Source: a virus (taxonomy: Duplodnaviria; Heunggongvirae; Uroviricota; Caudoviricetes). Taken from it: a stretch of 64,000 nucleotides of DNA. The position numbers and the translations under genes were made by a program. Each line of letters begins with the position of its first letter. Within the stretch, counting starts at the first letter, position 1. The notes beneath the pieces are model-generated. The model did no database searches. It was not told the origin of the DNA and saw only the letters and a list, made by a program, of their open reading frames with translations. Of this stretch, positions 6,507-62,098 are shown piece by piece. Where the stretch lies: the IMG/VR virus record IMGVR_UViG_3300028805_000080, one strand, 5' to 3'.

Positions 6507-6507
6507 T

Positions 6508-12238: not shown

Positions 12239-12240
12239 AT

Positions 12241-12873
12241 ATGAATAAAGAAACAACTTTTTATGTAAATTCGGCAATTGACTTTTCAGAAAATGGTAGT
12301 TATTCACTTATTGATAAATCATTGGAAAATAAAGCAATGATTGTAATTACAGATGAAAAGGTAAAAGTTTATTTTGAAAGTGGTGCTCCAGAAATGGATT
12401 TTGGAAAAGATTATGAGTATTGCATGAAATTCATCAAAGATAATGAATTGACAATGGTAAAACTCATGAGTGGTGATAAGCGTTGGCATGAATATAATCC
12501 AAATCCAAAGGAGCGTAATATTGGTGATTGTACACTTCGTTCTTATTGTGCAGCATTTGGAATTTCTTGGGATAAGGCATTTGATATTGCTTCAAAAGTT
12601 GCAAAAGAAAATTCTTCAATGATTCAATATGTTGCCGATAAAGTACTTACTGAAGAGTTTAATTGTGTTATTGATGAAAAATATAATAAAAAGACAGTTA
12701 AGTCTAAAGATCGTATTAAAGTAAATGAATTTGCTCTTTCACATCCTTATGGTACTTATATTCTTCATGTACCTAAGCATCAAGTAACAGTTATTAATGG
12801 TGAATATTGGGATAGCTGGGATAGTGGAGACAAGAAAATTGATACAGTTTATATTGTTCCTAAAAAGAAATAA
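12241..12873 (+). CDS. Hypothetical protein with a 'GDCTLRSYCAAFG' Cys motif (cysteine-peptidase-like?).
   Basis: ORF only; the motif is suggestive at best. Confidence 0.4.
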   Translation: MNKETTFYVNSAIDFSENGSYSLIDKSLENKAMIVITDEKVKVYFESGAPEMDFGKDYEYCMKFIKDNELTMVKLMSGDKRWHEYNPNPKERNIGDCTLRSYCAAFGISWDKAFDIASKVAKENSSMIQYVADKVLTEEFNCVIDEKYNKKTVKSKDRIKVNEFALSHPYGTYILHVPKHQVTVINGEYWDSWDSGDKKIDTVYIVPKKK

Positions 12874-12875
12874 TT

Positions 12876-13151
12876 ATGATTAATCATGAAACATTAGGAG
12901 CACATATAAGAAATATTCTTAGTCCTTATGCTAATATAATTCAGATTCTCGAAGAGTTACATTCTGAAAAGACAGATGAAAAGACTAAGGAATTAATCAA
13001 GAATTATCTTCTTAATGAAATCAATCCATTTGATCTTAAGAAAAATCTAGATCATTTTATTGATGTTTCAAATCTAAAAGAAGTAGAATCAATTAATTGG
13101 AGAGCTACAGAACTTTGTGAAAGATATTATAAAGAAATTGAGAATAGTTAA
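12876..13151 (+). CDS. Hypothetical protein.
   Basis: ORF only. Confidence 0.35.
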   Translation: MINHETLGAHIRNILSPYANIIQILEELHSEKTDEKTKELIKNYLLNEINPFDLKKNLDHFIDVSNLKEVESINWRATELCERYYKEIENS

Positions 13152-13179
13152 CATAAGTAATTTTAAAATTTAAAAAGAA

Positions 13180-14031
13180 ATGCGAAAATTTATTAATTGG
13201 ATGTTTGCACTTGTATGTGCATTTGTATTGACAACAGGATTGTCTAGTTGTATTGGTTGTACAACAGTTGATTCTGGTGAAGTAGGTATTAAGTTCCATA
13301 AGTGGTCTACTGATGAGACAAGCTATGGTGGTGTTGAAGGTACAGTTAAAGGTTGGGTATTCTATAATCCATTCTCAACCGATGTATTTACTTATCCAGT
13401 AAATGTTCAACGTAAGAATTATGAGGCTTTTACAGTAAATGCAAAGGATGCTTCAACATTTACTATGGATCCTATGATTGCTTATCATATCAATCCTGAC
13501 AAGGCATGTGATATTTTCGTGAAGTATCGTAAGCCAATTGAGGAGATTGAGAATGGCTATATTAGGACTTGTATTTATGAAGCTTATCGAACATGTGCTA
13601 ATAAGTATACATCTGATAGTTTGATGTCTAATCGAGAAAGATTTGAAGCAGATGTACGTACACGTCTAGAGAAGTCACTTGCAAATGAAGGATTTATTGT
13701 AGATGAGTTTACTTCAGCTATTAAGCCACCACAATCATTGAGTGATATGATTGATGCAAAGAATAAGGCGGTACAAGCAGCATTGAAAGCCGAGAATGAG
13801 GTAAAGGAAGCAGAAGCTAATGCAAAGATTAATGTTGCCAAGGCTAAAGGTAATGCAGAAGCTACAAAGATTAAGGCAGATGCTGAAGCTTATTACAATC
13901 GAACAATTGCAGCTTCACTTAGTCCTTTGATTGTACAAGAGGATTGGATTGAGAAGTGGGATGGTACTCTTCCTCAAACAGTTACTGGTGGAGCTTCAGG
14001 TACAATGTTAATGATAGGAGCAAATAAGTAA
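13180..14031 (+). CDS. SPFH/band-7 (prohibitin-like) domain lipoprotein.
   Basis: Signal peptide with lipobox 'LSSC'. 'GEVGIKFHKW...' SPFH-like core. Ala/Lys/Glu-rich C-terminal helix. Confidence 0.6.
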   Translation: MRKFINWMFALVCAFVLTTGLSSCIGCTTVDSGEVGIKFHKWSTDETSYGGVEGTVKGWVFYNPFSTDVFTYPVNVQRKNYEAFTVNAKDASTFTMDPMIAYHINPDKACDIFVKYRKPIEEIENGYIRTCIYEAYRTCANKYTSDSLMSNRERFEADVRTRLEKSLANEGFIVDEFTSAIKPPQSLSDMIDAKNKAVQAALKAENEVKEAEANAKINVAKAKGNAEATKIKADAEAYYNRTIAASLSPLIVQEDWIEKWDGTLPQTVTGGASGTMLMIGANK

Positions 14032-14270
14032 TGAATATAGGAATTATCATAGGGCTAGTGACAGTTGTCTTAGCCCTAATTTTAAATTATCTTATCCTCT
14101 TTAAATTTGAGGATTATGGAAAGAAAGTAAAGCATTTTACAATAACATATTATTGGACTTGGTTTATTTCATTAGTTCCATTTGTTGGATTTATATGGAT
14201 GATAGTTTGGTTTATTTGTTATTGTGCAGCTGGATTTAAATGTACATCTAAACTTTTTGAAGAGAAATAA
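14031..14270 (+). CDS. Small two-TM membrane protein coupled to the SPFH gene.
   Basis: Its start overlaps the upstream stop. Hydrophobic helices. Confidence 0.4.
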   Translation: MNIGIIIGLVTVVLALILNYLILFKFEDYGKKVKHFTITYYWTWFISLVPFVGFIWMIVWFICYCAAGFKCTSKLFEEK

Positions 14271-14324
14271 ATATTATAAAGTGACTATATTAATTAAAAT
14301 ATATGGTCACTTTATTTTTGCATA

Positions 14325-16301
14325 ATGTCTGAATATAATAAAGAAGGAATAACTGATAATATAAATAATTGGGTAACATTTAATTTAGAAGGTTTTGAGT
14401 TTAGAAAATATCAATTAGAGACAATTGTTGATATTATATATAATATTTTAAATCCAGATACTGAAAACACTAATGGGTGTCAGATTATTGAAGCTCCTAC
14501 TGGTAGTGGTAAGTCAATTATAAATATTATTTCTGCTTGTGTATTAGCAGAATGTTATGGATTACGTTCATATATATTAGCAAGTGATCTTTATCTTTGG
14601 CAACAATATTATGATTTTATTCAAGCAAATATGATATTAAGAGAAAAGATTGGTTGTCTTAAAGGTAAAGTTGGAAATTATAAATGTAGAAGAAATAATG
14701 AAGATTTATCAGCTGCCGAATGTAAGATGGCTGGTTTATCATGGGCTTCATTATATAGTATAGATACTGCGAAAAAACATGGATTTGATTGTGCAAAGAA
14801 TTGCAAGTATATCAAAGAACGTAAACATGCATTAAAGACACAAGTTACATTAATGACTTATCAATTATATTCGTTAATAGTTGATGGAAATAATGAAGAT
14901 GATAAAGTACCTGTATTTGATGTGAGAGATGTGATATTTTGTGATGAGTGTCATAATATACCAAATATTGTACAAATGCAAATGTCTCCTACAATAAGGT
15001 ATTCAGATGCTAATCATGTATTCAATATATATAATTATGCAAATAGTAATGGACTAGACTTATTTGATGATGTAAAAGACAAGATAATTGACCAAATTCT
15101 TCTAGATAAATATCCTACTTTTGACAAATTAAGAGAAGATTGGGAAAATATTTGGAGCGTTGCATCTAACTATAGAAATGATAATGACACTGATTATAGT
15201 AATATTCTACAAATATTAAGATATTTTACACAATTTGAAGTTACTATCAATCAAATTTGTGATGATATAATGAAACGAATAAAAGATAATTCTATTGTCA
15301 CAAAACAAGATATGGATATTTATAAAGAATGTGATCATGTATTGAAATATTTAGGTCCATTGTATCAATTTACAAATATTATCAGTATGACTGGTAAGAA
15401 ATATTTTGTAAAGCAAATAAATATAAAAGAAGAAGAAATATCTAATATCGAATATCATTGTGCCAAAGAAGACTTTTTAGTATATTTGACTATATTGATA
15501 AAGACTAGATTTAAAGTAATGGTAAGTGCTACTGTAGGAGATCAAGAGTCTTATGAAGATAGTATTGGAATAAAATACTTTGGGATGAGAGTAAAAGGTC
15601 TACCTATAAAAGAATTATCTAAAGAAATAACAACAAATTCATTAGAAGAAAATATATTAGAAGGAGCAGAAACTATATTTGATGAGTCTTCAATATATAA
15701 TAGAATTCCTTCTACATTTGATTTCTCAAAATCTCCTATACATTTCTATAATAGATATAAGATGAGTTTTAGAGACCAAGAACAATCTATACATAATCTC
15801 AAACCAATTATATATAAGATATTAGAACAACAACTTAAGAATCAACGAGGAATTATACAAACAGGATCTTATAAGATTGCCCAAGATATTATTAAAGATG
15901 CTCCTCCAAATATTAAGAAAAGATTTTTATATTATAATGGATCTCACGAAAAAATAAGTAATGTAACAATACATAAGATGAGTATTGATACTATTCTTAT
16001 TGGACCAACTCTTAATGAAGGTATTGATTTACCTGGTGATCAATGTAGATTTATATTTATTCTTAAAGTTCCTTATCCACAAATTAAAGATAGATTAGTT
16101 GATGCTAAAATGAAATTATTTCCTACTTGGTATAATTATACTACTTCTAATTTGATTATACAAGGAATAGGAAGAGGTAATCGTTTTAAAGATGATTGGT
16201 GCATAACTTATATATTTGATGCATGTTTTTATAATTTATTTTTAGCAACTAAAGAGCAATATCCTAAAGAATTACAAGAAAGACTAAAAATATATAATTA
16301 A
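14325..16301 (+). CDS. Rad3/XPD/DinG-family SF2 helicase with a 4-Cys FeS-cluster insert.
   Basis: Walker A 'APTGSGKS' and DEAH 'FCDECHN'. Four Cys (CLKG...C...C...C) between motifs I and II. C-terminal 'LIGPTLNEGIDLPGDQCRFIFILKVPYP'. Confidence 0.65.
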   Translation: MSEYNKEGITDNINNWVTFNLEGFEFRKYQLETIVDIIYNILNPDTENTNGCQIIEAPTGSGKSIINIISACVLAECYGLRSYILASDLYLWQQYYDFIQANMILREKIGCLKGKVGNYKCRRNNEDLSAAECKMAGLSWASLYSIDTAKKHGFDCAKNCKYIKERKHALKTQVTLMTYQLYSLIVDGNNEDDKVPVFDVRDVIFCDECHNIPNIVQMQMSPTIRYSDANHVFNIYNYANSNGLDLFDDVKDKIIDQILLDKYPTFDKLREDWENIWSVASNYRNDNDTDYSNILQILRYFTQFEVTINQICDDIMKRIKDNSIVTKQDMDIYKECDHVLKYLGPLYQFTNIISMTGKKYFVKQINIKEEEISNIEYHCAKEDFLVYLTILIKTRFKVMVSATVGDQESYEDSIGIKYFGMRVKGLPIKELSKEITTNSLEENILEGAETIFDESSIYNRIPSTFDFSKSPIHFYNRYKMSFRDQEQSIHNLKPIIYKILEQQLKNQRGIIQTGSYKIAQDIIKDAPPNIKKRFLYYNGSHEKISNVTIHKMSIDTILIGPTLNEGIDLPGDQCRFIFILKVPYPQIKDRLVDAKMKLFPTWYNYTTSNLIIQGIGRGNRFKDDWCITYIFDACFYNLFLATKEQYPKELQERLKIYN

Positions 16302-23223: not shown

Positions 23224-23251
23224 AAAGAGGTAAACTTATGTTTACCTCTTT
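23224..23251. terminator. Bidirectional rho-independent terminator between convergent genes.
   Basis: Perfect 12-bp stem aaagaggtaaac/gtttacctcttt with loop ttat. Flanked by A-run and T-run. Confidence 0.6.
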
Positions 23252-23256: not shown

Positions 23257-23532
23257 TTATTTGAAATCTTCTTCGAAATTTTCTATCCATTTGTCAAAGC
23301 TTTCTGAATTTTCATTAGCTGGATGTGTTAATTCAGATAATTCATCATCTGATAAATCATATTCATCCGCAAAATCTGCAACATTATCATAGATGTATTC
23401 TTTGAACTCTTCAAACTTATTCAAATTATTTTCATCTTTTAATGAATTAGCCCATTCAATAAAATTATCTTGAATTTCATATAGTCTATCTTTCTTTATA
23501 GATTCCGTAATAAATTCATTAATATGTTTCAT
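23257..23532 (-). CDS. CTS-tagged small acidic protein (putative capsid-internal/injected protein).
   Basis: N-terminus 'MKHINEFITE' matches the T4 internal-protein capsid targeting sequence (MKTYQEFIAE; I-x-E cleavage site). The body is highly acidic. Confidence 0.5.
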   Translation of the reverse strand: MKHINEFITESIKKDRLYEIQDNFIEWANSLKDENNLNKFEEFKEYIYDNVADFADEYDLSDDELSELTHPANENSESFDKWIENFEEDFK

Positions 23533-23543
23533 AATTACTAATT

Positions 23544-25040
23544 TTATTTTTTACCAGCAGCAGCTAATTTCTTTGCTTCTTCTTCAGCTTTCTTTTGTTC
23601 TTCTTCTTGTTTTTTCTTTTCTTCTTCTGCTTTCTTAGCTTCTTCCTCTTCTAACTTTTTCTTTTCATCTTCAATTTTCTTTTGTTCTTCTTCGGCTTTC
23701 TTAGCAGCTTCTTCTTGAGCTTTCTTCATTGCATCTTGATGAGTCTTATCACCATTATTCTCCAAAAGAGCTAAGTCACGAGCAGCTTTGTTAAGAACAG
23801 CAATAATTGCAGGATCATTCTTATATTGTTCAGCTAACATAGCAATCTTCTTCTTACGAGCTTCCATTTGAGCTTCTTTTTGTGCAGCTAACTCTTCTTG
23901 AATTTGCTTATATTCATCTGGACTTTGTTTCTTTACATCTTCATTAATTCTATCTTCAAAAAGATGTCTTAAATCAATACCTGAAACAGCTGTAACTTCT
24001 TTAAGAGCTTCTGTCATATAATCGAAGTCTTTTGTATAAGTACCATTATGAATAGAACTATTAACTGACATTGTTACATTTTCTTTAGCTTCAATGATAG
24101 TGCAAATAGTACCTGTTGAAGTACGAAGAACTTTAGCACAATCCATTACAAATACTTGACCAAATGATTCAAATACTTGACCAATTGCAGAAGTCTTGCT
24201 CATGAAATCAAATCTTTCATTCATTGTAAGTGCCTTAGAAAGAGTATCACAATATTCCATCCATTTTCCAGCATCTTCAAATGTTTCATTAATACGTTGT
24301 CCTTTGGTAAATTCAAGAGTTGTCTTTTCTTCGGCTTCTTTAATGACTACTTTACAGGTATCAAAACCAGATTTCCAAGAATAAGATAAAACACCTTCAT
24401 CATTTGCAAATGACTCAAGAAGAGCATTGATATTTCTGAATTTTACATCATCACAAACAGCTTCACAAACTTTTGTTTGATCTTTGTTAATCTTATATGT
24501 CTTATTCAACACATTGAAGTATTTATCACCTTCTTCATTCTCATATACATAAGAAATTGGATTTACAACTGAATATTGAGGAGTTGCAGCTTCTGTAATA
24601 GTTGACTTGAATACTTGCTTGCATACATTTCTAAATTCAGGAATATATTGTACTCCTTTAAGAGCTCCTGACTTAATATAAGAAACAACTTGTGATTCAT
24701 CCATTTCAAGAAGTTTTCCAACTTGCTCAACACCAGTCTTTGCAATATAGTTGTAAGTAGATCTATTATTCTCAATAGATTCACATGCACTAGCTAATTG
24801 CCAAGAAATCTTATTTTCATTAATAAAACCTAATACAGACTCTAAAATACCAGCTAGACCTGTATCGAAGCTATATTTTTGTGCTTCATGTAAGAAGCCA
24901 TTAACAATACCACAAGATGCAGGATTTGTAAACAAATAAGCCTTGTAGTTCTTAACCATCTCTTTACCTGCTTCAGTCACAGCATTGCAATTATTCAATT
25001 TGCTTGCGAAATCGAGGTCTTTAAGTAATTTTATGTTCAT
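23544..25040 (-). CDS. Virion/scaffold-like protein with a long C-terminal E/K-rich coiled coil.
   Basis: C-terminal '(EEAKK/AEEEKKK)n' coiled coil. GC-richer codon usage suggests high expression. Confidence 0.45.
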   Translation of the reverse strand: MNIKLLKDLDFASKLNNCNAVTEAGKEMVKNYKAYLFTNPASCGIVNGFLHEAQKYSFDTGLAGILESVLGFINENKISWQLASACESIENNRSTYNYIAKTGVEQVGKLLEMDESQVVSYIKSGALKGVQYIPEFRNVCKQVFKSTITEAATPQYSVVNPISYVYENEEGDKYFNVLNKTYKINKDQTKVCEAVCDDVKFRNINALLESFANDEGVLSYSWKSGFDTCKVVIKEAEEKTTLEFTKGQRINETFEDAGKWMEYCDTLSKALTMNERFDFMSKTSAIGQVFESFGQVFVMDCAKVLRTSTGTICTIIEAKENVTMSVNSSIHNGTYTKDFDYMTEALKEVTAVSGIDLRHLFEDRINEDVKKQSPDEYKQIQEELAAQKEAQMEARKKKIAMLAEQYKNDPAIIAVLNKAARDLALLENNGDKTHQDAMKKAQEEAAKKAEEEQKKIEDEKKKLEEEEAKKAEEEKKKQEEEQKKAEEEAKKLAAAGKK

Positions 25041-25123
25041 ATGATTTTATTTGGTATATTTATGTTCTTTATTTAATAAAAATAAATTTTTCTATAAATA
25101 ATAATATAAAAAAATAATTATGA

Positions 25124-25408
25124 TTAAAGACGCCAACCCATGGTGCCACATACACTTGCTAACACAAGGCGACTTGTCATAAGTGATCCTAATGAGCCTT
25201 TTGGATCAATTCCTAAAGCTTTACAAATTGCTTGTCCAAGCTTAGGTCCTATAGAAGCTCCAAGAATAGCTCCTCCAATAGCTCCTAATATGCCTTCATC
25301 AATTGGTATGCCTGCTTCTTTAGCTTCTTGTAATTTTTGAATTATATCATCATAAGACAAGTCTTCTGTCAAAGGCTTCTCTGTTACAAATTCATCGATA
25401 TCTTTCAT
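25124..25408 (-). CDS. CTS-tagged glycine-zipper membrane-active small protein.
   Basis: 'MKDIDEFVTE' CTS. 'GILGAIGGAILGASIG' GxxxG zipper. Confidence 0.5.
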   Translation of the reverse strand: MKDIDEFVTEKPLTEDLSYDDIIQKLQEAKEAGIPIDEGILGAIGGAILGASIGPKLGQAICKALGIDPKGSLGSLMTSRLVLASVCGTMGWRL

Positions 25409-25413
25409 AATTA

Positions 25414-25770
25414 TTATAATTTATTTTGAATATTTCGTAATATATTAATCATTATATTATATAAATCTTTCCAAGTTCCTGATTCAGTCCATTCAGAGTC
25501 TACTTCTTTAGAAAATTTCATATATTTTCCTAAATCTTTTAATCTCATTGAAATATTACAAATATTATTATTAAATTTTGTAAATTCAATATAGCAAACT
25601 CCTAATTTTCCACAATCTACTGAAATATAAGTATCTTTTTTAGACTCTAATGATTTTTGAATTTTCTTAAATAAAAAAGAATCATTACGTTTACCACTTT
25701 CTATTTGTGATATATTACAAGAAAACTCCTGATTTAATGATTCTAAAATAAAAGTCTTAATATCTTTCAT
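25414..25770 (-). CDS. CTS-tagged hypothetical protein.
   Basis: 'MKDIKTFILE'. Confidence 0.45.
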   Translation of the reverse strand: MKDIKTFILESLNQEFSCNISQIESGKRNDSFLFKKIQKSLESKKDTYISVDCGKLGVCYIEFTKFNNNICNISMRLKDLGKYMKFSKEVDSEWTESGTWKDLYNIMINILRNIQNKL

Positions 25771-25787
25771 AATTATATAATATTATT

Positions 25788-26066
25788 TTAATCTAAGTGT
25801 CTAGGACTACCACTATGTGAAAGCTCATAGTCATACCATTTTTCTACAAAACGATCTTTGACTTCCTTTTCATCAAAAGATTTCTTAGCTCTTTCTAATA
25901 GATCATACCATAGTTTCTTATAGTCTTTATAGTTATAATTATTTACTTCATCTCCCCATCCAGCAGTAAATGCTAAAGAATAAAGTATCTTATCTAAATC
26001 ATCAATAGTTAATGAAAATGTTGCTGATGATTTTTCTTCATTTATAAAATCATTGATATTCTTCAT
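25788..26066 (-). CDS. CTS-tagged hypothetical protein.
   Basis: 'MKNINDFINE'. Confidence 0.45.
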   Translation of the reverse strand: MKNINDFINEEKSSATFSLTIDDLDKILYSLAFTAGWGDEVNNYNYKDYKKLWYDLLERAKKSFDEKEVKDRFVEKWYDYELSHSGSPRHLD

Positions 26067-26083
26067 ATTTATAATAAAAATAT

Positions 26084-26398
26084 TTATTCAGTTACAGGAT
26101 TTTGATAATAGAATCTTGCTAAGTCTACATCATCGCCAATTTTCATTGCATCATCTTCTTGTTCTGTACCGATATAGCAATCTTGAATTTCTTTAATCCA
26201 AATTTTTATTTCTTTATCAGAAAGATTAGCAAACATATCTCTATATTGATCTTCTTCTAAATTTACATTAGTGACAAGTCTATTAAACCATTGCCAGTCA
26301 CTTGCAAATTTTTCTTGATCACTTCTACTATCATCAATTATTTGAGAATTCTTATTGACTTTAAGTTTCTCATCAATAAAATTATTAATAGTCTTCAT
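26084..26398 (-). CDS. CTS-tagged hypothetical protein.
   Basis: 'MKTINNFIDE'. Confidence 0.45.
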   Translation of the reverse strand: MKTINNFIDEKLKVNKNSQIIDDSRSDQEKFASDWQWFNRLVTNVNLEEDQYRDMFANLSDKEIKIWIKEIQDCYIGTEQEDDAMKIGDDVDLARFYYQNPVTE

Positions 26399-26583
26399 TT
26401 ATAAATTATATGTATTTTATTTACATCTTTACAATCTCTAGTTTTTGATAAGATATCCATATATAATTGAGGTTCATTATTATTATAATACTTATCAAAA
26501 ATTAGATTATTTTCTTTATCATAAATCTCTAATTTTAATACGTCTCTATATATTATAACTGTATATAATATATTCTTTTCCAT
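26395..26583 (-). CDS. Hypothetical small protein (no CTS).
   Basis: ORF with ATGA-type overlap. Confidence 0.3.
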   Translation of the reverse strand: MEKNILYTVIIYRDVLKLEIYDKENNLIFDKYYNNNEPQLYMDILSKTRDCKDVNKIHIIYK

Positions 26584-26594
26584 TTTTTTGTTTT

Positions 26595-27011
26595 TTAAAT
26601 GGATAAATTCTCATATATTTTCTTGAAATTTACCCCATATTTTTTTATTTTCTTCTTTATATCTTCATCATATAAAGATTCATCAAAACAATATAATGGT
26701 AATTTATTTGCTAAATTCATTGACTTATTATATAATTTTGCGTCAACGTATATGTCATCAAAATTCTTGTTTTCAAATAGTTTCTTTAATTTATCAATAT
26801 TTTCATTATCTTCATATAAGAATAGAATATGATTATCATTTATATTGAATTCATATACTATTTGAGATTTATTTAATTTTCCAAAATCAATATCTTCTTT
26901 GAATTTTCCTTCATAAAGAATTTTTTGATTATAAGTTACTTTACATTCAAATTCAAAAAGTTTATCATATAATTCTTTATTATTTTCTTTTATATATGAT
27001 AGGTTTTCCAT
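26595..27011 (-). CDS. Hypothetical protein (no CTS).
   Basis: ORF only. Confidence 0.35.
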   Translation of the reverse strand: MENLSYIKENNKELYDKLFEFECKVTYNQKILYEGKFKEDIDFGKLNKSQIVYEFNINDNHILFLYEDNENIDKLKKLFENKNFDDIYVDAKLYNKSMNLANKLPLYCFDESLYDEDIKKKIKKYGVNFKKIYENLSI

Positions 27012-27015
27012 ATTA

Positions 27016-27333
27016 TTAATTATTTTGTTGTTTTTCTAACCATTCTAATGATTGATGATAACATTTATTAAAATCATTATATTCACTTTCCCAATCACCA
27101 TCAAATCCTATATCATATCTTGTAGATCCATTTTTGTATATAAATATTGTAAAATCTCCAGTATTTCCACCAGGATGATTTTTAAAAGTTATTTTACAAT
27201 TATATTTTTTAGCTTCTTCTTTTAAATCATTTATAGCTATTTTATAATTTGATTTATTATATTCAATAGTTTTTAGTTTTGTATCTTTATTGATTTTTAG
27301 CTTTTCTATTATATATTCAACTATTTTCTTCAT
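27016..27333 (-). CDS. CTS-tagged hypothetical protein.
   Basis: 'MKKIVEYIIE'. Confidence 0.45.
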   Translation of the reverse strand: MKKIVEYIIEKLKINKDTKLKTIEYNKSNYKIAINDLKEEAKKYNCKITFKNHPGGNTGDFTIFIYKNGSTRYDIGFDGDWESEYNDFNKCYHQSLEWLEKQQNN

Positions 27334-27724
27334 TTAATAAATCTATTATTTTTTTGAATGTATCTATAGAAGAAATTGGAAAAAATGATCTATCCATAAA
27401 TATTCCTAATACCGAACGATTCTTGTCTCCATCATCATTCAATAAATCATAATTATTAATAGTACCAGTTATTTGTGGATAATGCTTAGCTGTCTTTGCA
27501 CGAATCCATTCCATATTACGTACATGTTCTTTACTATTAATATTAATATCTTTATCTGCTATTAAGAACATTGGCTCTCTTGACCACTCAAACTTATTCT
27601 CATCCCAATTAGCCATACGTTTCATAATAGCATTGATAATATCTCCATCTAAAAGTTTTGATATTTTCTTTCCTATTGTAGATTGATCTTTAGATTCATT
27701 AATAAATTCATCAATATTCTTCAT
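27317..27724 (-). CDS. CTS-tagged hypothetical protein.
   Basis: 'MKNIDEFINE'. Confidence 0.45.
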   Translation of the reverse strand: MKNIDEFINESKDQSTIGKKISKLLDGDIINAIMKRMANWDENKFEWSREPMFLIADKDININSKEHVRNMEWIRAKTAKHYPQITGTINNYDLLNDDGDKNRSVLGIFMDRSFFPISSIDTFKKIIDLLNEENS

Positions 27725-27756
27725 AAAAACTATTCGTGATTTATTAAAAATAAAAT

Positions 27757-27787
27757 AAATAAAAAAAGAGAAGTATTAAACTTCTCT
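27757..27787 (-). terminator. Rho-independent terminator on the - strand, inside the CTS gene array.
   Basis: 9-bp stem aagagaagt/acttctctt with loop attaa. The A-run on + equals a U-run after the hairpin on the - strand. Confidence 0.5.
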
Positions 27788-27803
27788 TAATTTATATTAA
27801 TTA

Positions 27804-28811
27804 TTATATTTCTTTAATTAAACTTTCAAATATTGCTTTAAATTTCTTAAGAGGTAAAACAGTAGAATGTTCTAATGCATATCCATAAAGTCCTCCTCCT
27901 TCATTAGTTACAATATCAAATGTTATATCTTTTGACTTATCTCCTTTAGTAACTGTTACAATAAATCCTTCAGTCCATGCTCTACCATTTCTATTCATAA
28001 TAGCTTTACCTTCAGAAGTCTTAGCATTCTTAAATGCTTCTTTCCATTCAATTGTATAATCTTTTAATGACTCAAAATATTTATATACTGATTTTGTAAT
28101 CCAGCTTTCAGATATTTTCTTTGTTTCTTTATCAAGACGTTTCATATCTGAGTCATCAACTTTTTGATCTTTGTATTTTTCAGTATAAGCAACAATTTCT
28201 GCTTTATTCAAAAGTTTCCTATTTTCAATTTCATATCCAAATACTGAAACTGCTTCAGGCCAACTAATAAGCATTGCAGCTAGCCAACGAGCAACTAATT
28301 TCTTATCATCTTTAATAGATTTAACTAGTCTTTCTGGATCTGAATGCTTATTGAAATATCCTTTCATCTTGTCAATATGCTTTTGATCTGTAGAATATTT
28401 TGAAGTATCTGCGTTCTTTACTTCTTCTTCAAATTTTTCAGCTGCTTCTTTCTCTCTTGCAGCTTCTCCATCTACTGCCTCTTGATATGACTCATCTTTA
28501 GATCTATCATATTTAAAACAAAGTATTGCATAATATTTAGAATTAGCATTAACTTTTCTAAATCTACTTATACCTTTATTCTTACTAAGTCTTTCTTTCC
28601 ATTCATCAACTGAATCTCTAGAAATTCCATAAAGAGCATGTGTTTGAACTTTATCAAATAATGATTGAACATAAACTCCATATCTATCTCCACTACCATA
28701 TTGATAATTAAGCCATTCAGTATCACTCATATTCTTGATTCTTCCTTCTAAAACCAAGTCACTAATATTAAGAGTTCTTTGCTCTCTTATAAATCTATTA
28801 AAAGATTTCAT
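27804..28811 (-). CDS. CTS-tagged 335-aa protein.
   Basis: 'MKSFNRFIRE'. Confidence 0.45.
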   Translation of the reverse strand: MKSFNRFIREQRTLNISDLVLEGRIKNMSDTEWLNYQYGSGDRYGVYVQSLFDKVQTHALYGISRDSVDEWKERLSKNKGISRFRKVNANSKYYAILCFKYDRSKDESYQEAVDGEAAREKEAAEKFEEEVKNADTSKYSTDQKHIDKMKGYFNKHSDPERLVKSIKDDKKLVARWLAAMLISWPEAVSVFGYEIENRKLLNKAEIVAYTEKYKDQKVDDSDMKRLDKETKKISESWITKSVYKYFESLKDYTIEWKEAFKNAKTSEGKAIMNRNGRAWTEGFIVTVTKGDKSKDITFDIVTNEGGGLYGYALEHSTVLPLKKFKAIFESLIKEI

Positions 28812-28836
28812 AATTATACTAATTTTATTATTTTAT

Positions 28837-29043
28837 TTAATATTGTATATTTTCATCATCATCAAAATGAGCAAAAATATTTCCTTCTTCTTTTTTGCCA
28901 AATTCAGATAATTGCTTAGAATATTTAGAATCTATAGAAATCTCACATGATATTGGTAATCCTTCTTCATCTACTAAATCATTAAAAGCAACATGTATTG
29001 TTTTCGTTTTATTTTCATTAATAAAATTATCTAAATGCTTCAT
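28837..29043 (-). CDS. CTS-tagged small protein.
   Basis: 'MKHLDNFINE'. Confidence 0.4.
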   Translation of the reverse strand: MKHLDNFINENKTKTIHVAFNDLVDEEGLPISCEISIDSKYSKQLSEFGKKEEGNIFAHFDDDENIQY

Positions 29044-29067
29044 ATCTTATTAATATATTTTTAAATA

Positions 29068-29550
29068 TTAATCTGCTTCTAAATCTTTTATTGTAAGTTT
29101 TGTCTCTGGATTAAGTTCTTTAATTAATTCATAAAAGAATTTAGCACTTTTATCACCAAAAATGTTAACTTTATCTTGGAATTTTTCACCTGATACATAA
29201 GTACCAGGTCCACTTCCACCATATGTTACTTCAAATCCAAATAATTCATCACTATTAATAACATAATAAATAGATGTTTTTGGTATACGTATAAATATAT
29301 CATCATAATTTAAGTGACGACATAATCTACGTGTTTCACCATCCCATACTTCAGGAAATCTTATAAAAAATTCTCCTTCACTCATATACTTATCAAAATA
29401 TTTTGGTAATTCTTCTTTACCACGTTTAAAATATTTATTAAGTATATCTTGTAATTTTTTAACTTCTGGTGAATAACGTTTTTTATCTGCTTCTTTACCA
29501 GTAGGTCCATATTTACCTTCAATTATTAAGAACTCTTTTAAATGTTTCAT
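29068..29550 (-). CDS. CTS-tagged hypothetical protein.
   Basis: 'MKHLKEFLIIE'. Confidence 0.45.
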   Translation of the reverse strand: MKHLKEFLIIEGKYGPTGKEADKKRYSPEVKKLQDILNKYFKRGKEELPKYFDKYMSEGEFFIRFPEVWDGETRRLCRHLNYDDIFIRIPKTSIYYVINSDELFGFEVTYGGSGPGTYVSGEKFQDKVNIFGDKSAKFFYELIKELNPETKLTIKDLEAD

Positions 29551-29561
29551 TTTTATATATA

Positions 29562-31193
29562 TTAATATTTTTTACCTCCACGATCTGCTTGAAGTTTCAT
29601 TTGTGTTGTAATCATTGATTTAGCATCTTCATCTGTAAAATCTGGATCATCATCACAAGCTTCAAATATTTTTGAGCATATGCCAAAAGTACGAATTGAG
29701 ATTTCCATCTTTGATTTGTTCTCAGCTAGTTCTTTAAGATATTCAAATGCTTTTTGCTTTGCTTTAGGAGAAAGATGTTCTGGATCAAGATTTGGTATAA
29801 GCTTCTCAATAATCTTCAATATATCTTCTGTTGAGAAATGAATATCTTGTATAAATGAACGTCCTCTTAAAGCAGTATCTAATTGACCAGCATTATAGTT
29901 TGTTATTATAATTATAGATCCATTATAATAGAATTTCTTTGGAATATCCATACCTTCATCATCTTTAAGAGGTCCACTAATTCCATATTTTACTAATCTT
30001 CCTTCATCATCACTTGTGGAATCTAATGCAGCTTTAAGAATATTGATTACTTCTTCAGGAGCTTTTGGCCCTACTAATCCATCTGCATCATCAATAACAA
30101 TGACATCTCCTTTATTCTTATAATCTAATAGTTGCATATATAATACTCGAGGAGTGCATTTTCCTTTTATAGTACAAAGATTATGACCTTCATGATATCC
30201 ATTAGCTTTAAGAAGTTGTTTTACTCTATAAGACTTACCAACACCAGGAGCACCACAAAGAATAACAGATGGAGTGATTCCTTTCATGACCATCTTTATA
30301 TATTTCTCCATTTCTTTGAACACTTGTTCTGGTTCTTTTTTGATACTATTTATCTCATTTTCTGCTTCTATCTCTTCTTTTGATGATTGAACCTTGACAA
30401 CTACATTCTTTTGAATAGCTAACTTGACTTCTTCAATAGTTGCTGCTCCACCCTTTACAGCTTTCTTTATCTCATCATATTCAGAAGCTAATCTTTTGAA
30501 TCTTTCTTTAGCTTCTGGAGAATCTTTACGATGATCAATAGCATCTTTCAATTCTTCTAGTCTTTCTTTTTTCCAATTCAACAAGTCTTCATAACTACCT
30601 TCCATAAATACATTATTTTTTAAGTTATAAATAAATGTATCTGTTACTAATTTTTCTTTTAATCCTTCTTGTATAATATAAGGAAATGCACCAATATAAA
30701 ATGGATATTCAACTCCTTCTTTTACACCATTTGCAAATATTGACTTAATGAACTTTGTAGCTGAATTTTTCTCCAAATTAAAATCTTTAGTATTGATTAC
30801 ATAAGAGATTAATGGAATAAAATAAGCTATTGAACAACCAAATGTCTCAATAGTCATATCTGATTTTCCTTGACCATTAAAGAAAACATCCATATTCTTG
30901 AAAAAAGAAATAGAATAAATCTCACTTGATTTTCCTGAATTAAGCCAATTGAATGTAAAGCAAATAGGATTCTTAGACTTAGCAATTACAAACAATTCAG
31001 AATAACATTCATTCTTGTTTATCTCTAAATCAAAATTTCCTAATGATACAATAGTTTCTTTAGTTTCTTTTTTCAATAAGTCTAATATAATTTTTTGAGC
31101 TTTTCCTAATTCAGAATTCTTAAAAGCCTCAACAACTATATTTCTATTTTTATCATTGATTTTCTTATTTTCAACAAACTCTAAAAAATTCAT
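29562..31193 (-). CDS. AAA+ ATPase domain protein.
   Basis: Walker A 'LCGAPGVGKSY' and Walker B 'VIVIDDADGL'. Sensor 'IIIITNY' and Arg 'LRGR'. The N-terminus 'MNFLEFVENK' is only partly CTS-like. Confidence 0.55.
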   Translation of the reverse strand: MNFLEFVENKKINDKNRNIVVEAFKNSELGKAQKIILDLLKKETKETIVSLGNFDLEINKNECYSELFVIAKSKNPICFTFNWLNSGKSSEIYSISFFKNMDVFFNGQGKSDMTIETFGCSIAYFIPLISYVINTKDFNLEKNSATKFIKSIFANGVKEGVEYPFYIGAFPYIIQEGLKEKLVTDTFIYNLKNNVFMEGSYEDLLNWKKERLEELKDAIDHRKDSPEAKERFKRLASEYDEIKKAVKGGAATIEEVKLAIQKNVVVKVQSSKEEIEAENEINSIKKEPEQVFKEMEKYIKMVMKGITPSVILCGAPGVGKSYRVKQLLKANGYHEGHNLCTIKGKCTPRVLYMQLLDYKNKGDVIVIDDADGLVGPKAPEEVINILKAALDSTSDDEGRLVKYGISGPLKDDEGMDIPKKFYYNGSIIIITNYNAGQLDTALRGRSFIQDIHFSTEDILKIIEKLIPNLDPEHLSPKAKQKAFEYLKELAENKSKMEISIRTFGICSKIFEACDDDPDFTDEDAKSMITTQMKLQADRGGKKY

Positions 31194-31211: not shown

Positions 31212-32894
31212 TTATATAAAAATAACATTTACAGGATCAAGACGTAATGATGTTTCTTTACCTAATGAAGAATTCTTATTTGGATAATACAATATATCTC
31301 CATGTAATAATCCTAAATAAAGATTGTTGTCAATAGATATATTTCCTATATTGTCTAATCCTAAATTCAAGTTAGTCTCATAATTATATCTTATCTTATC
31401 ATATCTTATTTGACCATTCAATAAAGTATTTGAATATTTATAATAATATCCATTATAGAATGCTTGTTCATTAGCTTCAGATATAATCTCTATATGTAAA
31501 GACTTTATATTTTGTACATGATCTAATATATATTTCACTATATCTGATTTTGATATGAAAGTAATATTATAATTCAATTTAGAAAAATATTTTATAACAG
31601 TATTTTGTACTTCTGTTTGTATAGTATCTTTATAATATAAATCAGTAGGCTTTATATAGCAAATTATAGAATATTTATATATAACTGGATCAATGAATTT
31701 CACTTGTATACCAGCAAAAGTATTGTTTGAATTCTTAAGTACGGTTATTATGTCATTCTTTTGCGAATTGGTCAAAATCAAATCTTTATCATTCAAGTCT
31801 TTATATTCAGAAATATCTTTTATATCTTTTATCTTATTACTAATAGCACTAATTATCAATGTATTAGAATTATTCTCTGTCCAAATATTAAAATTACCAA
31901 TAAATGAGAAATGCTTCAAGAATAATGTATAATTATCTAATGAAGCTAATACATTGCTTCTAGAATTATATCCTATCATTTTACGAACATCATCAATAGT
32001 ATCTGCATCAGTTCCTCCACTTATATAATTATTTATCTTGAGATTAATATAATTATTCAAATTGATTTGATTTCCATTATAGTCATATCCTCTATCTACA
32101 AAAGAAAAATTGACATTACTTATATTGTTTATGTTTCCAGATTTACCATTATGCAAAAGATATTCTACTTTGATATTTGATCCTCCTTCAGGTATTTTTC
32201 CATAAATTCCATTACCAAAAGTAATATCTAATTCATTATCAAATCCTCCACTAATGACATATTCTTCTCCATCTTGAGTCATATCATACATATTTGATAC
32301 CGGTTGCCATTCAATATTATTAACAAATACTTTTGTATAATTCTTATCATACATACCATTTACATTAATATGTATAGACTCTAATTCTTCTCCTTTAGCG
32401 GTATAGTTTGCTGTCTTTAAATATCCTTGAACAATCTTGAAGTCATAGTTTACCAATGGATAATTTATATCAAACACATATCTATCACTTTGTATATACA
32501 ATATATAATTCATATTATTCTCTGTATTTTGAATAGATATATGGTTATCAATATATATCTTACGTATTTCTTTTGAAAGATTTGTATTGCTAATCAAAGA
32601 AGCTGTCAATATTCCTGTAGCTGCTGATCCATAATAAGGCTCATATCCAGAAAGCTTAGCTAATGAATATATAGATTTCTTACGTACTGCTGTCTCAATA
32701 TTTTGTTCTGTGAAAGCATCTTCAATATATATCATAATATTTTGAACAATACCTTTCAATCCATTGAATATTATCTTGAAAATTTGATTATCACTATATT
32801 TTATACCTAAGTTAGAGAAAATCTTACTTAAGTATGTATTTACAGAATTATCAAAATTATTAAAATTAGTTTCTATTAATGTAAATAGTTTCAT
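31212..32894 (-). CDS. Putative baseplate wedge protein (gp6/J-like by position).
   Basis: Immediately downstream of the gp25-like gene. Called from size and synteny only. Confidence 0.3.
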   Translation of the reverse strand: MKLFTLIETNFNNFDNSVNTYLSKIFSNLGIKYSDNQIFKIIFNGLKGIVQNIMIYIEDAFTEQNIETAVRKKSIYSLAKLSGYEPYYGSAATGILTASLISNTNLSKEIRKIYIDNHISIQNTENNMNYILYIQSDRYVFDINYPLVNYDFKIVQGYLKTANYTAKGEELESIHINVNGMYDKNYTKVFVNNIEWQPVSNMYDMTQDGEEYVISGGFDNELDITFGNGIYGKIPEGGSNIKVEYLLHNGKSGNINNISNVNFSFVDRGYDYNGNQINLNNYINLKINNYISGGTDADTIDDVRKMIGYNSRSNVLASLDNYTLFLKHFSFIGNFNIWTENNSNTLIISAISNKIKDIKDISEYKDLNDKDLILTNSQKNDIITVLKNSNNTFAGIQVKFIDPVIYKYSIICYIKPTDLYYKDTIQTEVQNTVIKYFSKLNYNITFISKSDIVKYILDHVQNIKSLHIEIISEANEQAFYNGYYYKYSNTLLNGQIRYDKIRYNYETNLNLGLDNIGNISIDNNLYLGLLHGDILYYPNKNSSLGKETSLRLDPVNVIFI

Positions 32895-37501: not shown

Positions 37502-38092
37502 ATGGAGAATTTTCCTGTAGATTATATTGATAAAGAGACTGGTGAAAAGAAAGTAGCTTGGATTAGTCGTAGTGTAGCTGTTTCTGGTATTGTATTTTGT
37601 AAAGACCTAGATGGTGATTGGTGTATATTAGCTAATAAGCGTGGTAAAGGTACTCCAGATTTCCAAGGTTATTGGAATTGTATTTGTGGATATCTTGACT
37701 ATGATGAGAATGCTAATCAAGCAATGAATCGTGAGATATTTGAAGAGACAGGACTAGATATTCCTGGAAGAAGATTCATTCATTATTTTGTAAACTCTAA
37801 TCCTAAAGAGAATAGACAAAATGTAACTATTAGATTCTATTGTATACTTAAGTCAGATATTACAGAATGGAGTAATTTCTCAAAAGACAAGATGGAGAAA
37901 GATGAAGTAGCTGATATCAAATGGATTAAAGTAAAAGATATTAATGATTATCAATGGGCATTTAATCATAATGACTTGATTAATTATACATATAATACAT
38001 TTGTAAATATAAGTTGGTGGAAGAGAATTATTATTAATTGGTATAATACTCATATCATTAAGCAATTAGTTGAAAGTTTATATAAGAAATAA
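37502..38092 (+). CDS. Nudix hydrolase.
   Basis: Perfect Nudix box 'GYLDYDENANQAMNREIFEETGL' (Gx5Ex7REUxEExGU). Confidence 0.65.
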   Translation: MENFPVDYIDKETGEKKVAWISRSVAVSGIVFCKDLDGDWCILANKRGKGTPDFQGYWNCICGYLDYDENANQAMNREIFEETGLDIPGRRFIHYFVNSNPKENRQNVTIRFYCILKSDITEWSNFSKDKMEKDEVADIKWIKVKDINDYQWAFNHNDLINYTYNTFVNISWWKRIIINWYNTHIIKQLVESLYKK

Positions 38093-41748: not shown

Positions 41749-41765
41749 AAATATTAAATTTATAT

Positions 41766-45462: not shown

Positions 45463-45546
45463 TAAATATATAATTTAAACTCTCAATAGGATTCTCTTGT
45501 AGAGTCCTTATAATAAAAAAATTCAATATAATTGGAGGTAATTATT

Positions 45547-45990: not shown

Positions 45991-46049
45991 TTTTATTAAG
46001 AGTTTAATTGGGATGGGACATGTCCCATCCCATTTTTAATTTTTAATAT

Positions 46050-61438: not shown

Positions 61439-62098
61439 TTAAATCTTATAGAATACTCCTGTATTTAATGCTGTCATATTATTAATATGTTCTTTGTAAA
61501 ATTTTAAATCATCATAATTAAAAAAATCTTTTATCATTTTAAAGTTTCCACATTTACAATATAATGATGTTACTCGTTTATCTTTACCATGTGCACATAT
61601 ATAAATTTTATGTTCTTTCTTACACATTTCTTTTAATTTTTCAAAAAACACTTTAATTGTCGCAATAGGACTAATATCTAATTCTTTTGAATTATCAGGT
61701 AACATTTCTAAATAAGTAACATATATAGATTTTTCTAAAAATGCTGAAGGACTAATATTTGTATTACGTATTATAGGTCTACTAAATATTTCATATATAA
61801 ATTTACAATAAAATTGAAGTATTTTATCATTTTTATATTTAATATATGTCTTCTCAGTATTTATAAAATCAAATATTGCAAAAATACCAATACATTTATT
61901 TTTATACATCATTTTATAATGTTGAGAATCTTCCCAATATGGTAATTCTGAAGAATCATTCACTCCTAATTTTTTGAATCCATCATTATGATTTAATATT
62001 TTTTCAGCATCATTATGTGACATTTGTTCTATTTTAAATTCTTTTGATAATTCATTTGATAGAATTGATTCTAATATATATTGTACTAATGAAACCAT
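61439..62098 (-). CDS. Hypothetical protein on the opposite strand between the two topoisomerase genes.
   Basis: ORF only. Confidence 0.3.
   Translation of the reverse strand: MVSLVQYILESILSNELSKEFKIEQMSHNDAEKILNHNDGFKKLGVNDSSELPYWEDSQHYKMMYKNKCIGIFAIFDFINTEKTYIKYKNDKILQFYCKFIYEIFSRPIIRNTNISPSAFLEKSIYVTYLEMLPDNSKELDISPIATIKVFFEKLKEMCKKEHKIYICAHGKDKRVTSLYCKCGNFKMIKDFFNYDDLKFYKEHINNMTALNTGVFYKI

Follow-up and report, generated by a model that had tools for sequence, protein, structure and literature searches.

A probable capsid-targeting leader of the T4 internal-protein type on arrays of unrelated small proteins in a jumbo phage family

The stretch of DNA analysed here (64,000 nucleotides, hereafter the window) is part of the 321-kb genome of an uncultivated jumbo phage, a member of the PAU/PTm1/Lak clade known from gut or rumen metagenomes, with a G+C content of 25% and no Shine-Dalgarno sequences visible upstream of its genes. 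On the minus strand, genes for a T4 gp6-like baseplate wedge protein (31212..32894; best phage match PAU gp17) and for a 543-aa AAA+ ATPase conserved in the family (29562..31193) are followed, in the same direction, by an array in which nine genes encode proteins that begin with a common leader of about ten residues. In the order of transcription these are an acidic 68-aa protein (28837..29043, MKHLDNFINE) with a homologue in the related locus L004; the largest cargo protein of the window, of 335 aa (27804..28811, MKSFNRFIRE), whose single-sequence AlphaFold2 model (pLDDT 45) was too poor for use; a 135-aa protein (27317..27724, MKNIDEFINE) belonging to a five-member cargo cluster spread over relatives; a 105-aa protein with the extended leader MKKIVEYIIEKLKINKDTK (27016..27333), again with a homologue in L004; a 104-aa protein with the extended leader MKTINNFIDEKLKVNKNSQ (26084..26398); proteins of 92 aa (25788..26066, MKNINDFINE) and 118 aa (25414..25770, MKDIKTFILE); a 94-aa protein with a glycine-zipper segment (25124..25408, MKDIDEFVTE); and a 91-aa protein (23257..23532, MKHINEFITE) that is very acidic after its leader (pI 4.1, net charge -17) and has no match in Pfam or PHROG. 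Contrary to an earlier note on this DNA, the genes are not strictly consecutive, since three minus-strand genes without a leader lie among them: one for a 138-aa protein conserved in relatives L004 and L006 (26595..27011), a 62-aa ORF whose stop overlaps the start of the next gene (ATGA; 26395..26583), and one for a 498-aa protein with a Lys/Glu-rich coiled C-terminus (23544..25040), which is kept at the same position in relatives (495 aa in L006, 434 aa in L008) and gave no tblastn match against phage genomes. A terminator-like hairpin with a 9 bp stem and a following T-run lies inside the array on the minus strand (27766..27788), near the internal terminator proposed earlier at 27757..27787, and a bidirectional terminator-like hairpin with a 12 bp stem (23224..23251), between convergent genes, is where the minus-strand operon of structural and leader genes ends.

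The leader was defined by a strict pattern, ^MK.[ILFVMY]..[FYW][ILVM].E, applied to the 530 ATG starts of the window, both strands included, that are followed by 30 aa or more. Exactly the nine genes listed above match; they lie within 23257 to 29043 on the minus strand and have the consensus MK-x-[ILF]-x-x-[FY]-[IV]-x-E, and no further match was found elsewhere in the window on either strand. Chance would supply 0.043 matches given the local amino-acid composition (Poisson P ~1e-18), or 0.13 per 64 kb at the rate of four matches in 1.92 Mb of unrelated phage loci (P ~3e-14). Of the ten leader genes counted previously, nine therefore stand as strict matches; the other, for a 160-aa protein (29068..29550, minus strand; MKHLKEFLIIEG), is a near match with one residue inserted before the Glu, which falls at position 11; a weight matrix derived from 67 leaders of the family gives it 14 bits. 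The ATPase, formerly regarded as a partial match, is not a leader protein, its N-terminus (MNFLEFVENK) scoring -16 bits on the same matrix, and the ending [I/L]-x-E ascribed to every member is V-T-E in the glycine-zipper protein. A 219-aa protein encoded at 61439..62098 on the minus strand (MVSLVQYILES) is a possible extra member by a relaxed match only. Codons inside the leader vary synonymously (AAA/AAG, ATT/ATC/ATA, GAA/GAG) and the DNA upstream of leader genes shows no conservation, so that the leader is conserved at the level of protein. When 22 residues are trimmed from the nine window proteins, pairwise BLASTP finds no similarity at E<1e-3, in agreement with the earlier description of them as unrelated beyond the motif.

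The search for tagged genes elsewhere in the genome, suggested by the same note, was productive: four more strict leader genes lie past the right end of the window on the same contig (64229-67664 in window coordinates; 12053-15488 of locus L011), bringing the total to at least 13 in 84 kb of this one genome. This second cluster sits among RecA-like, recombination and other non-structural genes, and consequently the association with baseplate genes holds for the gp6-like neighbour of the array but does not confine leader genes to that neighbourhood. Across the phage family the leader is found on at least 67 distinct proteins, which form 46 sequence clusters once it is trimmed; the relatives concerned reach down to 43% identity in the ATPase. 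Relatives with 70-78% identical ATPases have strongly different cargo, and in the near-identical metagenome contig L003 a 1-nt deletion in codon 4 frameshifts the 25788 gene. Leader genes form fast-turning-over arrays of unrelated cargo proteins, a turnover that would be expected of host-takeover or counter-defence proteins. Searches for function among the cargo returned nothing beyond DUF285 repeats and a handful of weak matches to enzymes; the leader-tagged proteins of relatives include cytidylyltransferase-like, HAD-like and DUF285 repeat proteins.

The leader resembles that of the T4 internal proteins, which is also about ten residues long (M-K-x-x-x-E-F-I-x-E) and ends in I-x-E. Building a logo from the N-termini had been proposed as a check, and the family weight matrix places T4 ipII and ipIII (MKTYQEFIAE) first and second among the 101 ATG starts of the T4 internal-protein region, at 11.0 bits; the next-best start there scores -1.8 bits, and a fraction of 4.5e-4 of 13,332 control starts reaches 11 bits. 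[quoted passage not shown] The claim that an arsenal of this size is far larger than T4's three holds for the numbers of one genome (three ip genes in T4, 13 or more strict leader genes over 84 kb here), but it is overstated as a novelty because T-even phages collectively have at least ten Ip types (PMC12373910, PMC3012670). There are further differences from T4. The family consists of jumbo phages of ~320-470 kb outside the Straboviridae, and the gp6-like protein of the window is only 25-30% identical to that of any sequenced phage; nearly half of the leaders here (~45%) are extended by K-L-x-I-N-K-D-S-K; some cargo of relatives is large and enzyme-like; and packaging, cleavage and injection are predictions in this phage.

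Head genes of the T4 type are present in the family. The protease, scaffold and capsid genes described here, among them that of the gp21-like protease for which the earlier note had proposed a search, come from relatives; the window's own contig was covered over 84 of its 321 kb. In 60 of 77 metagenome loci an S77-type protease is fused to the scaffold, a fusion that T4 lacks, and in L293-L301 a gp23-type capsid gene immediately follows this gene; the product of L299 8284-9897 matches PF03420 (Peptidase_S77) with 44 bits, the cut-off being 27. L299 shares a 376-kb contig with an ATPase and leader-gene locus (L027), and L301 shares one of 435 kb with an ATPase locus in which no leader gene was found (L024). 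A gene of L338 that is 77% nucleotide-identical to window 12235-12881 lies 4.4 kb from the capsid gene of that locus. In the capsid protein of the family an invariant Y-A-x-I-H-E-I-H-E occupies the expected maturation site, immediately ahead of the conserved N-terminal region of the mature protein; T4 gp23 has F-L-T-E before AEIGG. Leader genes also adjoin these head genes directly, with a 110-aa member between the protease-scaffold and capsid genes of L205 and at least ten immediately upstream of the protease in L294.

The closest cultured relative, Sphingomonas phage PAU (30.5% identity in the gp6-like protein), points in the same direction. At least 14 of its ORFs in ~100 kb share the leader M-K-[ST]-[LI]-x-x-L-[YF]-E; the proteins beginning MK[ST][LI]xxL[YF]E(AKLNEA) are gp142-146, 149, 150, 152, 153, 154, 270 and 16. 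Their genes cluster round those for the portal, protease and capsid in the head module (gp142-gp156, gp270). Residues K11 and L12 can be aligned with the extended leader of the window phage, and the tagged proteins include those labelled in RefSeq (NC_019521) as scaffolding (gp152) and internal capsid proteins (gp142, gp154, gp270), labels behind which no PDB entry or paper was found. Unlike the leader of the window, that of PAU has its Glu at position 9, one residue out of register, followed by a second L-N-E, and fails to score on the ungapped matrix; PAU also has separate genes for protease and scaffold.

Taken together, these comparisons give good support to the proposal of a T4-type targeting sequence cut at I-x-E by a gp21-like protease, and we put at roughly 70% the probability that the leader is a capsid-targeting propeptide of the internal-protein type. 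The first ~10 residues (M-K-x-[IL]-x-x-F-I-x-E) would form a short amphipathic helix, hydrophobic at positions 4, 7 and 8, which would dock the protein onto the scaffolding core during head assembly, the scaffold being the C-terminal part of the protease-scaffold fusion. The docked protein would thereby be enclosed in the prohead, and the S77 protease would cut after I-x-E, as is predicted for the major capsid protein after I-H-E. Mature cargo would be kept in the DNA-filled head, and most of it would probably exit with the DNA at infection, where it may act against host defences. If so, the leader tag could serve as a predictor of the proteins that travel in the virions of such phages and are probably injected. 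Several observations count against capsid targeting. The leader consensus is lost in distant homologues of the glycine-zipper protein, the body of which is conserved across the family while its leader decays (MENIDKFINDN, MKSMEELANAT); conservation of K-L-x-I-N-K-D-S-K beyond the predicted cut is unexplained by a simple 10-residue T4 model; the second leader cluster lies among non-structural genes; the PAU leader is shifted in register; the cargo gives few functional matches; and a scan of ~167 kb of the genome of PTm1, which has the same type of protease, turned up no leader of this kind.

An alternative that we consider improbable, while giving it some weight, is that the leader does target the prohead core, where the proteins would serve in assembly or architecture, as auxiliary scaffold, DNA-condensing or inner-shell components, rather than as injected effectors, the arrays then being a structural elaboration of a very large capsid and not the product of an arms race. 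The PAU scaffold itself carries the leader, and the PAU labels speak of internal capsid proteins and not of ejection. In L027, L028 and L029, leader proteins of 57-63 aa copy motifs of the capsid N-arm (ATPxNTxGMGN...GSGDIP) and have a basic tail at their end, features that suggest contacts with the inner surface or DNA, and some cargo is rich in coiled coil (for example L011 13433-13984). However, the strong variation in cargo between close relatives and the frameshifted 25788 gene are more readily reconciled with dispensable accessory genes than with structural parts, and the enzyme-like and DUF285 proteins carrying the leader in relatives also argue against an architectural role.

It is less likely again that the helix is a tag for a partner outside the capsid, either the AAA+ ATPase, as a chaperone, unfoldase or loader, or a baseplate or tail loaded with effectors. 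Leader genes follow the ATPase on the same strand in most of the relatives' loci examined, the ATPase adjoins baseplate genes, and its homologues share a conserved N-terminal FL-x-F-[LIV]-E motif. Against this, leader arrays also occur far from the ATPase, by the protease and capsid genes and among recombination genes, and PAU has the leader on head proteins, while no Sphingomonas (PAU) was among the ten commonest organism names in the ATPase search and PAU gp10 is dissimilar to the ATPase. In addition, the ATPase model is a generic AAA+ fold without informative match, and its homologue in T4-like phages is located in the early-gene region. We regard as very unlikely the possibility that the leader is a relic of one duplicated ancestor, or a recombination handle for shuffling cassettes, with no role in targeting: tandem arrays with rapid gain and loss would suit it, and T4-like phages are known to shuffle modules by way of conserved motifs that flank them (PMC4122927, in the part available), but amino acids are kept despite varying third-codon positions, upstream DNA is unconserved, the same peptide pattern recurs on all 46 clusters and in distant relatives, and it matches the experimentally defined T4 sequence. 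Least probable of all is a translation-initiation feature: a downstream-box-like, AT-rich 5' end of the coding sequence, favoured where the host lacks Shine-Dalgarno signals, which would imply nothing about protein fate. The base composition and lack of visible Shine-Dalgarno sequences would allow it, yet conservation is at the amino-acid level, only 9/530 ATG starts of the window have the motif, its structural, replication and chaperone genes lack it, and so do other AT-rich phage loci.

Capsid targeting by a cleaved leader would also have a counterpart in phiKZ-like giant phages, in which, according to the part of PMC5694885 available, a gp21-related protease (phiKZ gp175, SPN3US gp245) trims the N-terminal propeptides of many internal head proteins, and these propeptides are thought to direct incorporation. 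Most of them exceed 100 residues and end in an A-x-E-like motif ("ALE-111") in the same part of that source, whereas the tag described here is T4-like in length, at 10-22 residues, with I-x-E.

Nine genes of the window, at 23257, 25124, 25414, 25788, 26084, 27016, 27317, 27804 and 28837 on the minus strand, begin with a common ten-residue leader. They are the only matches to a strict pattern (^MK.[ILFVMY]..[FYW][ILVM].E) that was run on every ATG start of either strand of the 64 kb followed by 30 or more codons (530 starts), and all sit in the single long minus-strand gene block that contains 23257-31193. Local amino-acid composition gives a chance expectation of 0.043 strict matches, and unrelated phage loci, many of which are just as AT-rich, show 4 matches in 1.92 Mb, a background of 0.13 per 64 kb. 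The earlier note had described ten consecutive leader genes, with the adjoining AAA+ ATPase gene (29562-31193, minus strand) as a partial match. The tenth gene, at 29068 (MKHLKEFLIIEG), is shifted by one residue and is a near match; the ATPase, which begins MNFLEFVENK, fails to fit a weight matrix derived from leaders of the phage family; and three minus-strand genes lacking the motif interrupt the block (23544-25040, 26395-26583 and 26595-27011). The first of these encodes a 498-aa protein that also sits inside the array in some relatives and found no match by tblastn in 50,697 phage genomes. The [I/L]-x-E ascribed to residues 8-10 of every member is I-x-E in eight of the nine strict members, and V-T-E in one. 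The claim that the proteins are unrelated beyond the leader holds for these nine, which show no detectable similarity after trimming of 22 residues, and the ten window proteins have no match in Pfam or PHROGs. Where an internal terminator had been placed at 27757..27787, a terminator-like hairpin was found inside the array at 27766-27788, and a bidirectional terminator-like hairpin at 23224-23251 closes the gene block. In L003, a locus from another sample that matches the window exactly across the aligned stretch as far as this position, codon 4 of the leader gene 25788-26066 carries a 1-nt deletion causing a frameshift (around L003 3207-3220), possibly a natural pseudogene or an assembly error; since a near-identical contig has this deletion in its leader, the gene may be dispensable.

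Loci around homologues of the ATPase were taken from ENA, JGI, Logan and IMG/VR; as a single-protein query the ATPase returned no IMG/VR relatives, which were reached only with an alignment of its homologues. The ATPase search gave 1,175 database proteins at E<=1e-5, the best 120 of which are full-length homologues on contigs of up to 474 kb. Most examined loci whose ATPase is 43-78% identical to that of the window have leader genes, and the set varies between relatives: a phage with a 72%-identical ATPase has at least 12, and L008, a relative at 51%, retains only the glycine-zipper protein and the long conserved protein. The N-termini, whose alignment had been suggested, gave both a consensus and a weight matrix. 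For 31 leaders, taken from the window and its nearest relatives, the consensus reads M-K-[NS]-[IL]-x-[END]-F-I-x-E, with I at position 8 in 29 and E at position 10 in 30, and about 45% of these leaders continue with the extension K-L-x-I-N-K-D-S-K. With the leader removed (22 residues trimmed), 67 distinct leader proteins from 27 loci fell into 46 clusters.

The internal proteins of phage T4 carry a capsid targeting sequence (CTS) that attaches them to the scaffolding core, a principle known in T-even phages since the 1990s, and (L/I)-x-E is the motif recognised by the T4 gp21 protease. T4 ipII and ipIII start MKTYQEFIAE, and ipI starts MKTFKEF...ITE. The likeness to the T4 CTS put forward in the earlier note was borne out by the matrix from the 67 family leaders, which scored ipII and ipIII at 11.0 bits each and ranked them first of 101 ATG starts in the 15-kb T4 internal-protein region, the next start scoring -1.8; among 13,332 control starts, 0.045% (4.5e-4) reached 11 bits. 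A short CTS-like leader with an I-x-E end on mutually unrelated cargo is common to T4-type internal proteins and the window with its family, as are, at the level of the phage family, a gp21-family protease and a propeptide-bearing capsid protein. In contrast, the phiKZ/SPN3US type has long propeptides (~80-130 residues) on paralogous inner-head proteins (PMC5694885), whereas the conserved region here is 10-22 residues and the cargo is not paralogous. We put at about 70% the probability that the leader is a T4-type capsid-targeting propeptide which would dock the tagged protein onto the scaffold and would then be removed after I-x-E by an S77 protease. The extension K-L-x-I-N-K-D-S-K, lying after the predicted cut, is not accounted for by this propeptide model.

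Head-maturation genes were found in the phage family with a DNA pattern for the capsid block G-S-G-D...A-x-x-T-x-G...P of the clade, which led to locus L205; a first AT-rich pattern (capsid D-P-x-M...G-R-K) had missed the family because of codon choice. L205 has several leader genes of the same style (MKDLKQHIFEKLKISK..., MKSFKNFITEKLKITSN...), together with a 540-aa protease-scaffold fusion and a capsid gene between which lies a 110-aa leader gene. An IMG/VR search with the L205 capsid protein gave ten loci, each with a fusion of 537-583 aa ahead of the capsid gene, and a scan of JGI data added 77 further loci, 60 of them with the fusion before the capsid gene. The fusion matches T4 gp21 (phmmer, E ~1e-8), and that of L299, a capsid locus, scores 44 bits for PF03420 (Peptidase_S77) against a cut-off of 27. 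In the family capsid protein an invariant Y-A-x-I-H-E-I-H-E stands ahead of the conserved N-arm, the I-H-E-I-H-E corresponding in position to the F-L-T-E of T4 gp23 before its mature N-terminus. L299 and L027, a locus with the ATPase and leader genes, belong to one 376-kb contig; L301 shares a 435-kb contig with L024, an ATPase locus that yielded no leader gene; and in L294 ten or more leader genes stand immediately ahead of the protease gene. The gp21-like protease for which the earlier note had proposed a search is therefore present in the family, including the L299 contig with its leader locus, while none was seen in 84 of the 321 kb of the window's own contig. Head genes were likewise not found in any ATPase-centred locus examined. 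A search for homologues of the capsid protein of Tenacibaculum phage PTm1 gave 52 matches, none from the window's 321-kb contig; a capsid profile from Sphingomonas phage PAU and the huge uncultured phage LR756500 gave 3,206, the best 120 of which all came from another clade; a mixed capsid alignment against IMG/VR likewise reached only a clade other than this one; and four candidate capsid contigs from the window's sample came out of the JGI scan, none overlapping known sequence of the window's contig. L338, one of the JGI loci, has a gene 77% identical in nucleotide sequence to window 12235-12881, 4.4 kb from its capsid gene.

The closest cultured relative, PAU (NC_019521), offers the strongest indirect pointer to a tag that marks capsid-internal proteins in this clade, the proteins being so labelled by RefSeq annotation. 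RefSeq names gp147 as portal, gp151 as capsid maturation protease, gp152 as scaffolding protein, gp156 as major capsid protein, and gp142, gp154 and gp270 as internal capsid proteins. A leader M-K-[ST]-[LI]-x-x-L-[YF]-E, often followed by A-K-L-N-E-A, stands on at least 14 PAU ORFs (L178, NC_019521 105921-125654; L012 9332-9685; L014 30550-31593), and besides the scaffold protein and each of the three internal capsid proteins, ten or more small ORFs carry it. Most of these ORFs fall within the head module, and one, gp16, lies directly before the gene for the gp6-like protein. The PAU leader aligns with that of the window at M1 and K2, at hydrophobic positions 4, 7 and 8, and at K11-L12, with the Glu shifted by one residue. 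The N-terminus of the PAU capsid protein contains AKLNES. The PDB has no entry for gp154 or gp156, our literature search found no paper on the PAU internal proteins, and gp10, the internal vertex protein, has no similarity to the ATPase. In Prevotella phage Lak-A1, two genes of 349-387 aa near the capsid gene (L302 3539-4702 and 28472-29521) have the common N-terminus MNK[LQ]IK[RQ]L[IL]E[SN]LFDD, and the Lak megaphages may use a leader of their own.

Among the rival explanations, the one that survives best accepts an address inside the capsid and takes the leader proteins to be internal architecture proteins rather than injected effectors. The PAU labels agree with it, as would proteins of 57-63 aa in three relatives (L027 1248-1421, L028 1070-1261 and L029 15935-16123) in which the leader is followed by a copy of the capsid N-arm motif (ATPxNTxGMGN...GSGDIP) and a Lys/Arg-rich basic tail, and whose sequence would link leader-tagged proteins with the inside surface of the shell; neither the window nor its flanks yielded a gene of this kind. 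The turnover of the leader array between relatives and the frameshift variant are consistent with accessory cargo roles. Of 50 family members compared with Pfam and PHROGs only DUF285 (leucine-rich repeats) was recognised; among the larger cargo of relatives one protein is cytidylyltransferase-like, one is HAD-like, passing the Pfam cut-off for DUF2608 only, and one has a weak RNA-ligase-like match under the cut-off. The largest cargo cluster consists of DUF285 proteins (BspA-like leucine-rich repeat, WDVSNVTNM...) with the extended leader, found at L011 12053-12601 (the window's own contig), in tandem as three at L205 2128-4135, and in L028, L029, L031 and L040. The motif G-S...G-D-I-D-[IL] is typical of Pol-beta-type nucleotidyltransferases, and leader proteins of ~300 aa contain G-S-x-G-K-K...G-D-I-D-[IL] (L293 7159-8073, L295 2105-3025 and L294 159-1061). 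In the array of a close relative the same motif occurs without the leader (L004 12833-13771 and 14669-15577), and these versions appear, in a MAFFT alignment with BLAST not significant, to start where the leader would end. A single-sequence structure model of the 335-aa cargo protein reached a pLDDT of 45.

A second rival makes the leader a tag for the ATPase or for the tail. It draws on the position of the array, next to the ATPase gene and, as the earlier note had it, beside baseplate genes. Four further strict leader genes lie just outside the window on the same contig, in L011, where a RecA-like gene and other genes flank them, and so the tag is not confined to the neighbourhood of baseplate genes. 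A third rival is a recombination relic; the leader codons differ at synonymous sites and the DNA upstream of the leader genes is not conserved, and selection therefore acts on the peptide. The weakest alternative, a translation-initiation feature, was rejected on this peptide-level conservation and on restricted occurrence (9 of the 530 ATG starts). A secretion or lipoprotein signal was also rejected, as on inspection the leaders have neither a hydrophobic stretch nor a lipobox.

Under the favoured propeptide reading we infer that the leader proteins would be present in the virion, cleaved and injected, and may act in counter-defence. T-even internal proteins are diverse defence-countering proteins with only the CTS in common (PMC3012670); at least ten kinds exist, and the GmrSD enzyme that is blocked differs between Ip1, Ip2 and Ip3 (PMC12373910). 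A broader proposal, that the ten-residue tag is an ancient address label common to T4 and the PAU/Lak/gut-jumbo-phage clade, loading dozens of unrelated proteins per genome (repeat proteins and nucleotidyltransferase-, HAD- and ligase-like enzymes) into the capsid for delivery with the DNA, is one we advance tentatively, and we would sooner bet against it than on it. If it were true, the leader would be a simple sequence key by which one could tell, straight from metagenomes, which proteins the uncultivated jumbo phages of gut and rumen inject, candidate counter-defence factors among them. Injected proteins are a privileged class for counter-defence because they are active before any phage gene expression and, apart from those of T-even phages and a few other models, they are to our knowledge very difficult to identify. 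Were the tag to work in the T4 manner, this N-terminal pattern would mark virion-internal cargo of widespread uncultivated jumbo phages of 320-470 kb, which come from rumen and gut samples, giving tens of effector candidates for each genome; T4's CTS-scaffold-protease logic would be shared by very distant myoviruses, and the leader might be usable as a portable packaging tag in engineering. In the literature searched, no report of a T4-type leader in PAU, Lak, gut "Jug" or other huge phages was found. Compared with the T-even phages, what is new lies in the lineage, in the fusion of protease and scaffold, in the extended leader, in how many genes of a genome are tagged and in the enzyme-like cargo.

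The window corresponds to positions 88,796-152,795 of a 321,221-bp metagenome contig (ENA ERZ27256871 k141_3950003), and an identical stretch is present in a JGI sample. Its G+C is ~26%, and its genes include a T4 gp6-like baseplate wedge protein, topoisomerase II subunits, a helicase and a sigma-like factor, with a T4 gp13-like neck gene directly upstream. No close relative has been sequenced among 50,697 phage genomes, in which blastn of the neighbouring baseplate region gave no match. The gp6-like protein is 25-30% identical to those of PAU, the Tenacibaculum phages PTm1 and pT24 and the huge uncultured phages LR7565xx, with Lak megaphages as weaker matches below these; by capsid-protein similarity PAU, PTm1, pT24, LR7565xx and Lak form one clade. 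The predicted ATPase structure (pLDDT 70) matches only generic AAA+ folds. Its AAA domain has homologues in about 1,300 phage records, mostly Escherichia, Klebsiella, Vibrio and similar phages, the best among those listed being T4-like (Straboviridae-type); the homologue of Aeromonas phage UP87 (L177 3743-4717), annotated hypothetical, lies in an early region near asiA and a holin gene. In genome size (its contigs span 320-474 kb), in G+C and in coming from gut or rumen, the family resembles the "Jug" jumbo gut phages (PMC12880540), to which it may be related; L349, L354 and L366 are human-gut contigs of the family.

The window also encodes a chaperone set at 43534-47093, consisting of DnaK (Hsp70, E=2e-240), a small heat-shock protein of the HSP20 type and DnaJ. 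A cluster of NAD-related genes (IMPDH/FMN-dehydrogenase-like, NAD synthetase and nicotinamide-nucleotide adenylyltransferase-like), together with a NUDIX hydrolase encoded elsewhere in the window (4732-7988 and 37502-38092 in all), may serve NAD replenishment against NAD-depleting defences. At 39052-42335 lie two genes unusual in phages, one for an 898-aa protein carrying a PAP2 phosphatase domain and, after it, one for a formate/nitrite-transporter-like membrane protein. Two genes adjoining the sigma-factor-like gene 57518-58768, at 55719-56309 and 58768-59403 (L011 3543-4133 and 6592-7227), give faint Pfam hints to a Macro domain and to Acb3, and may be counter-defence genes.
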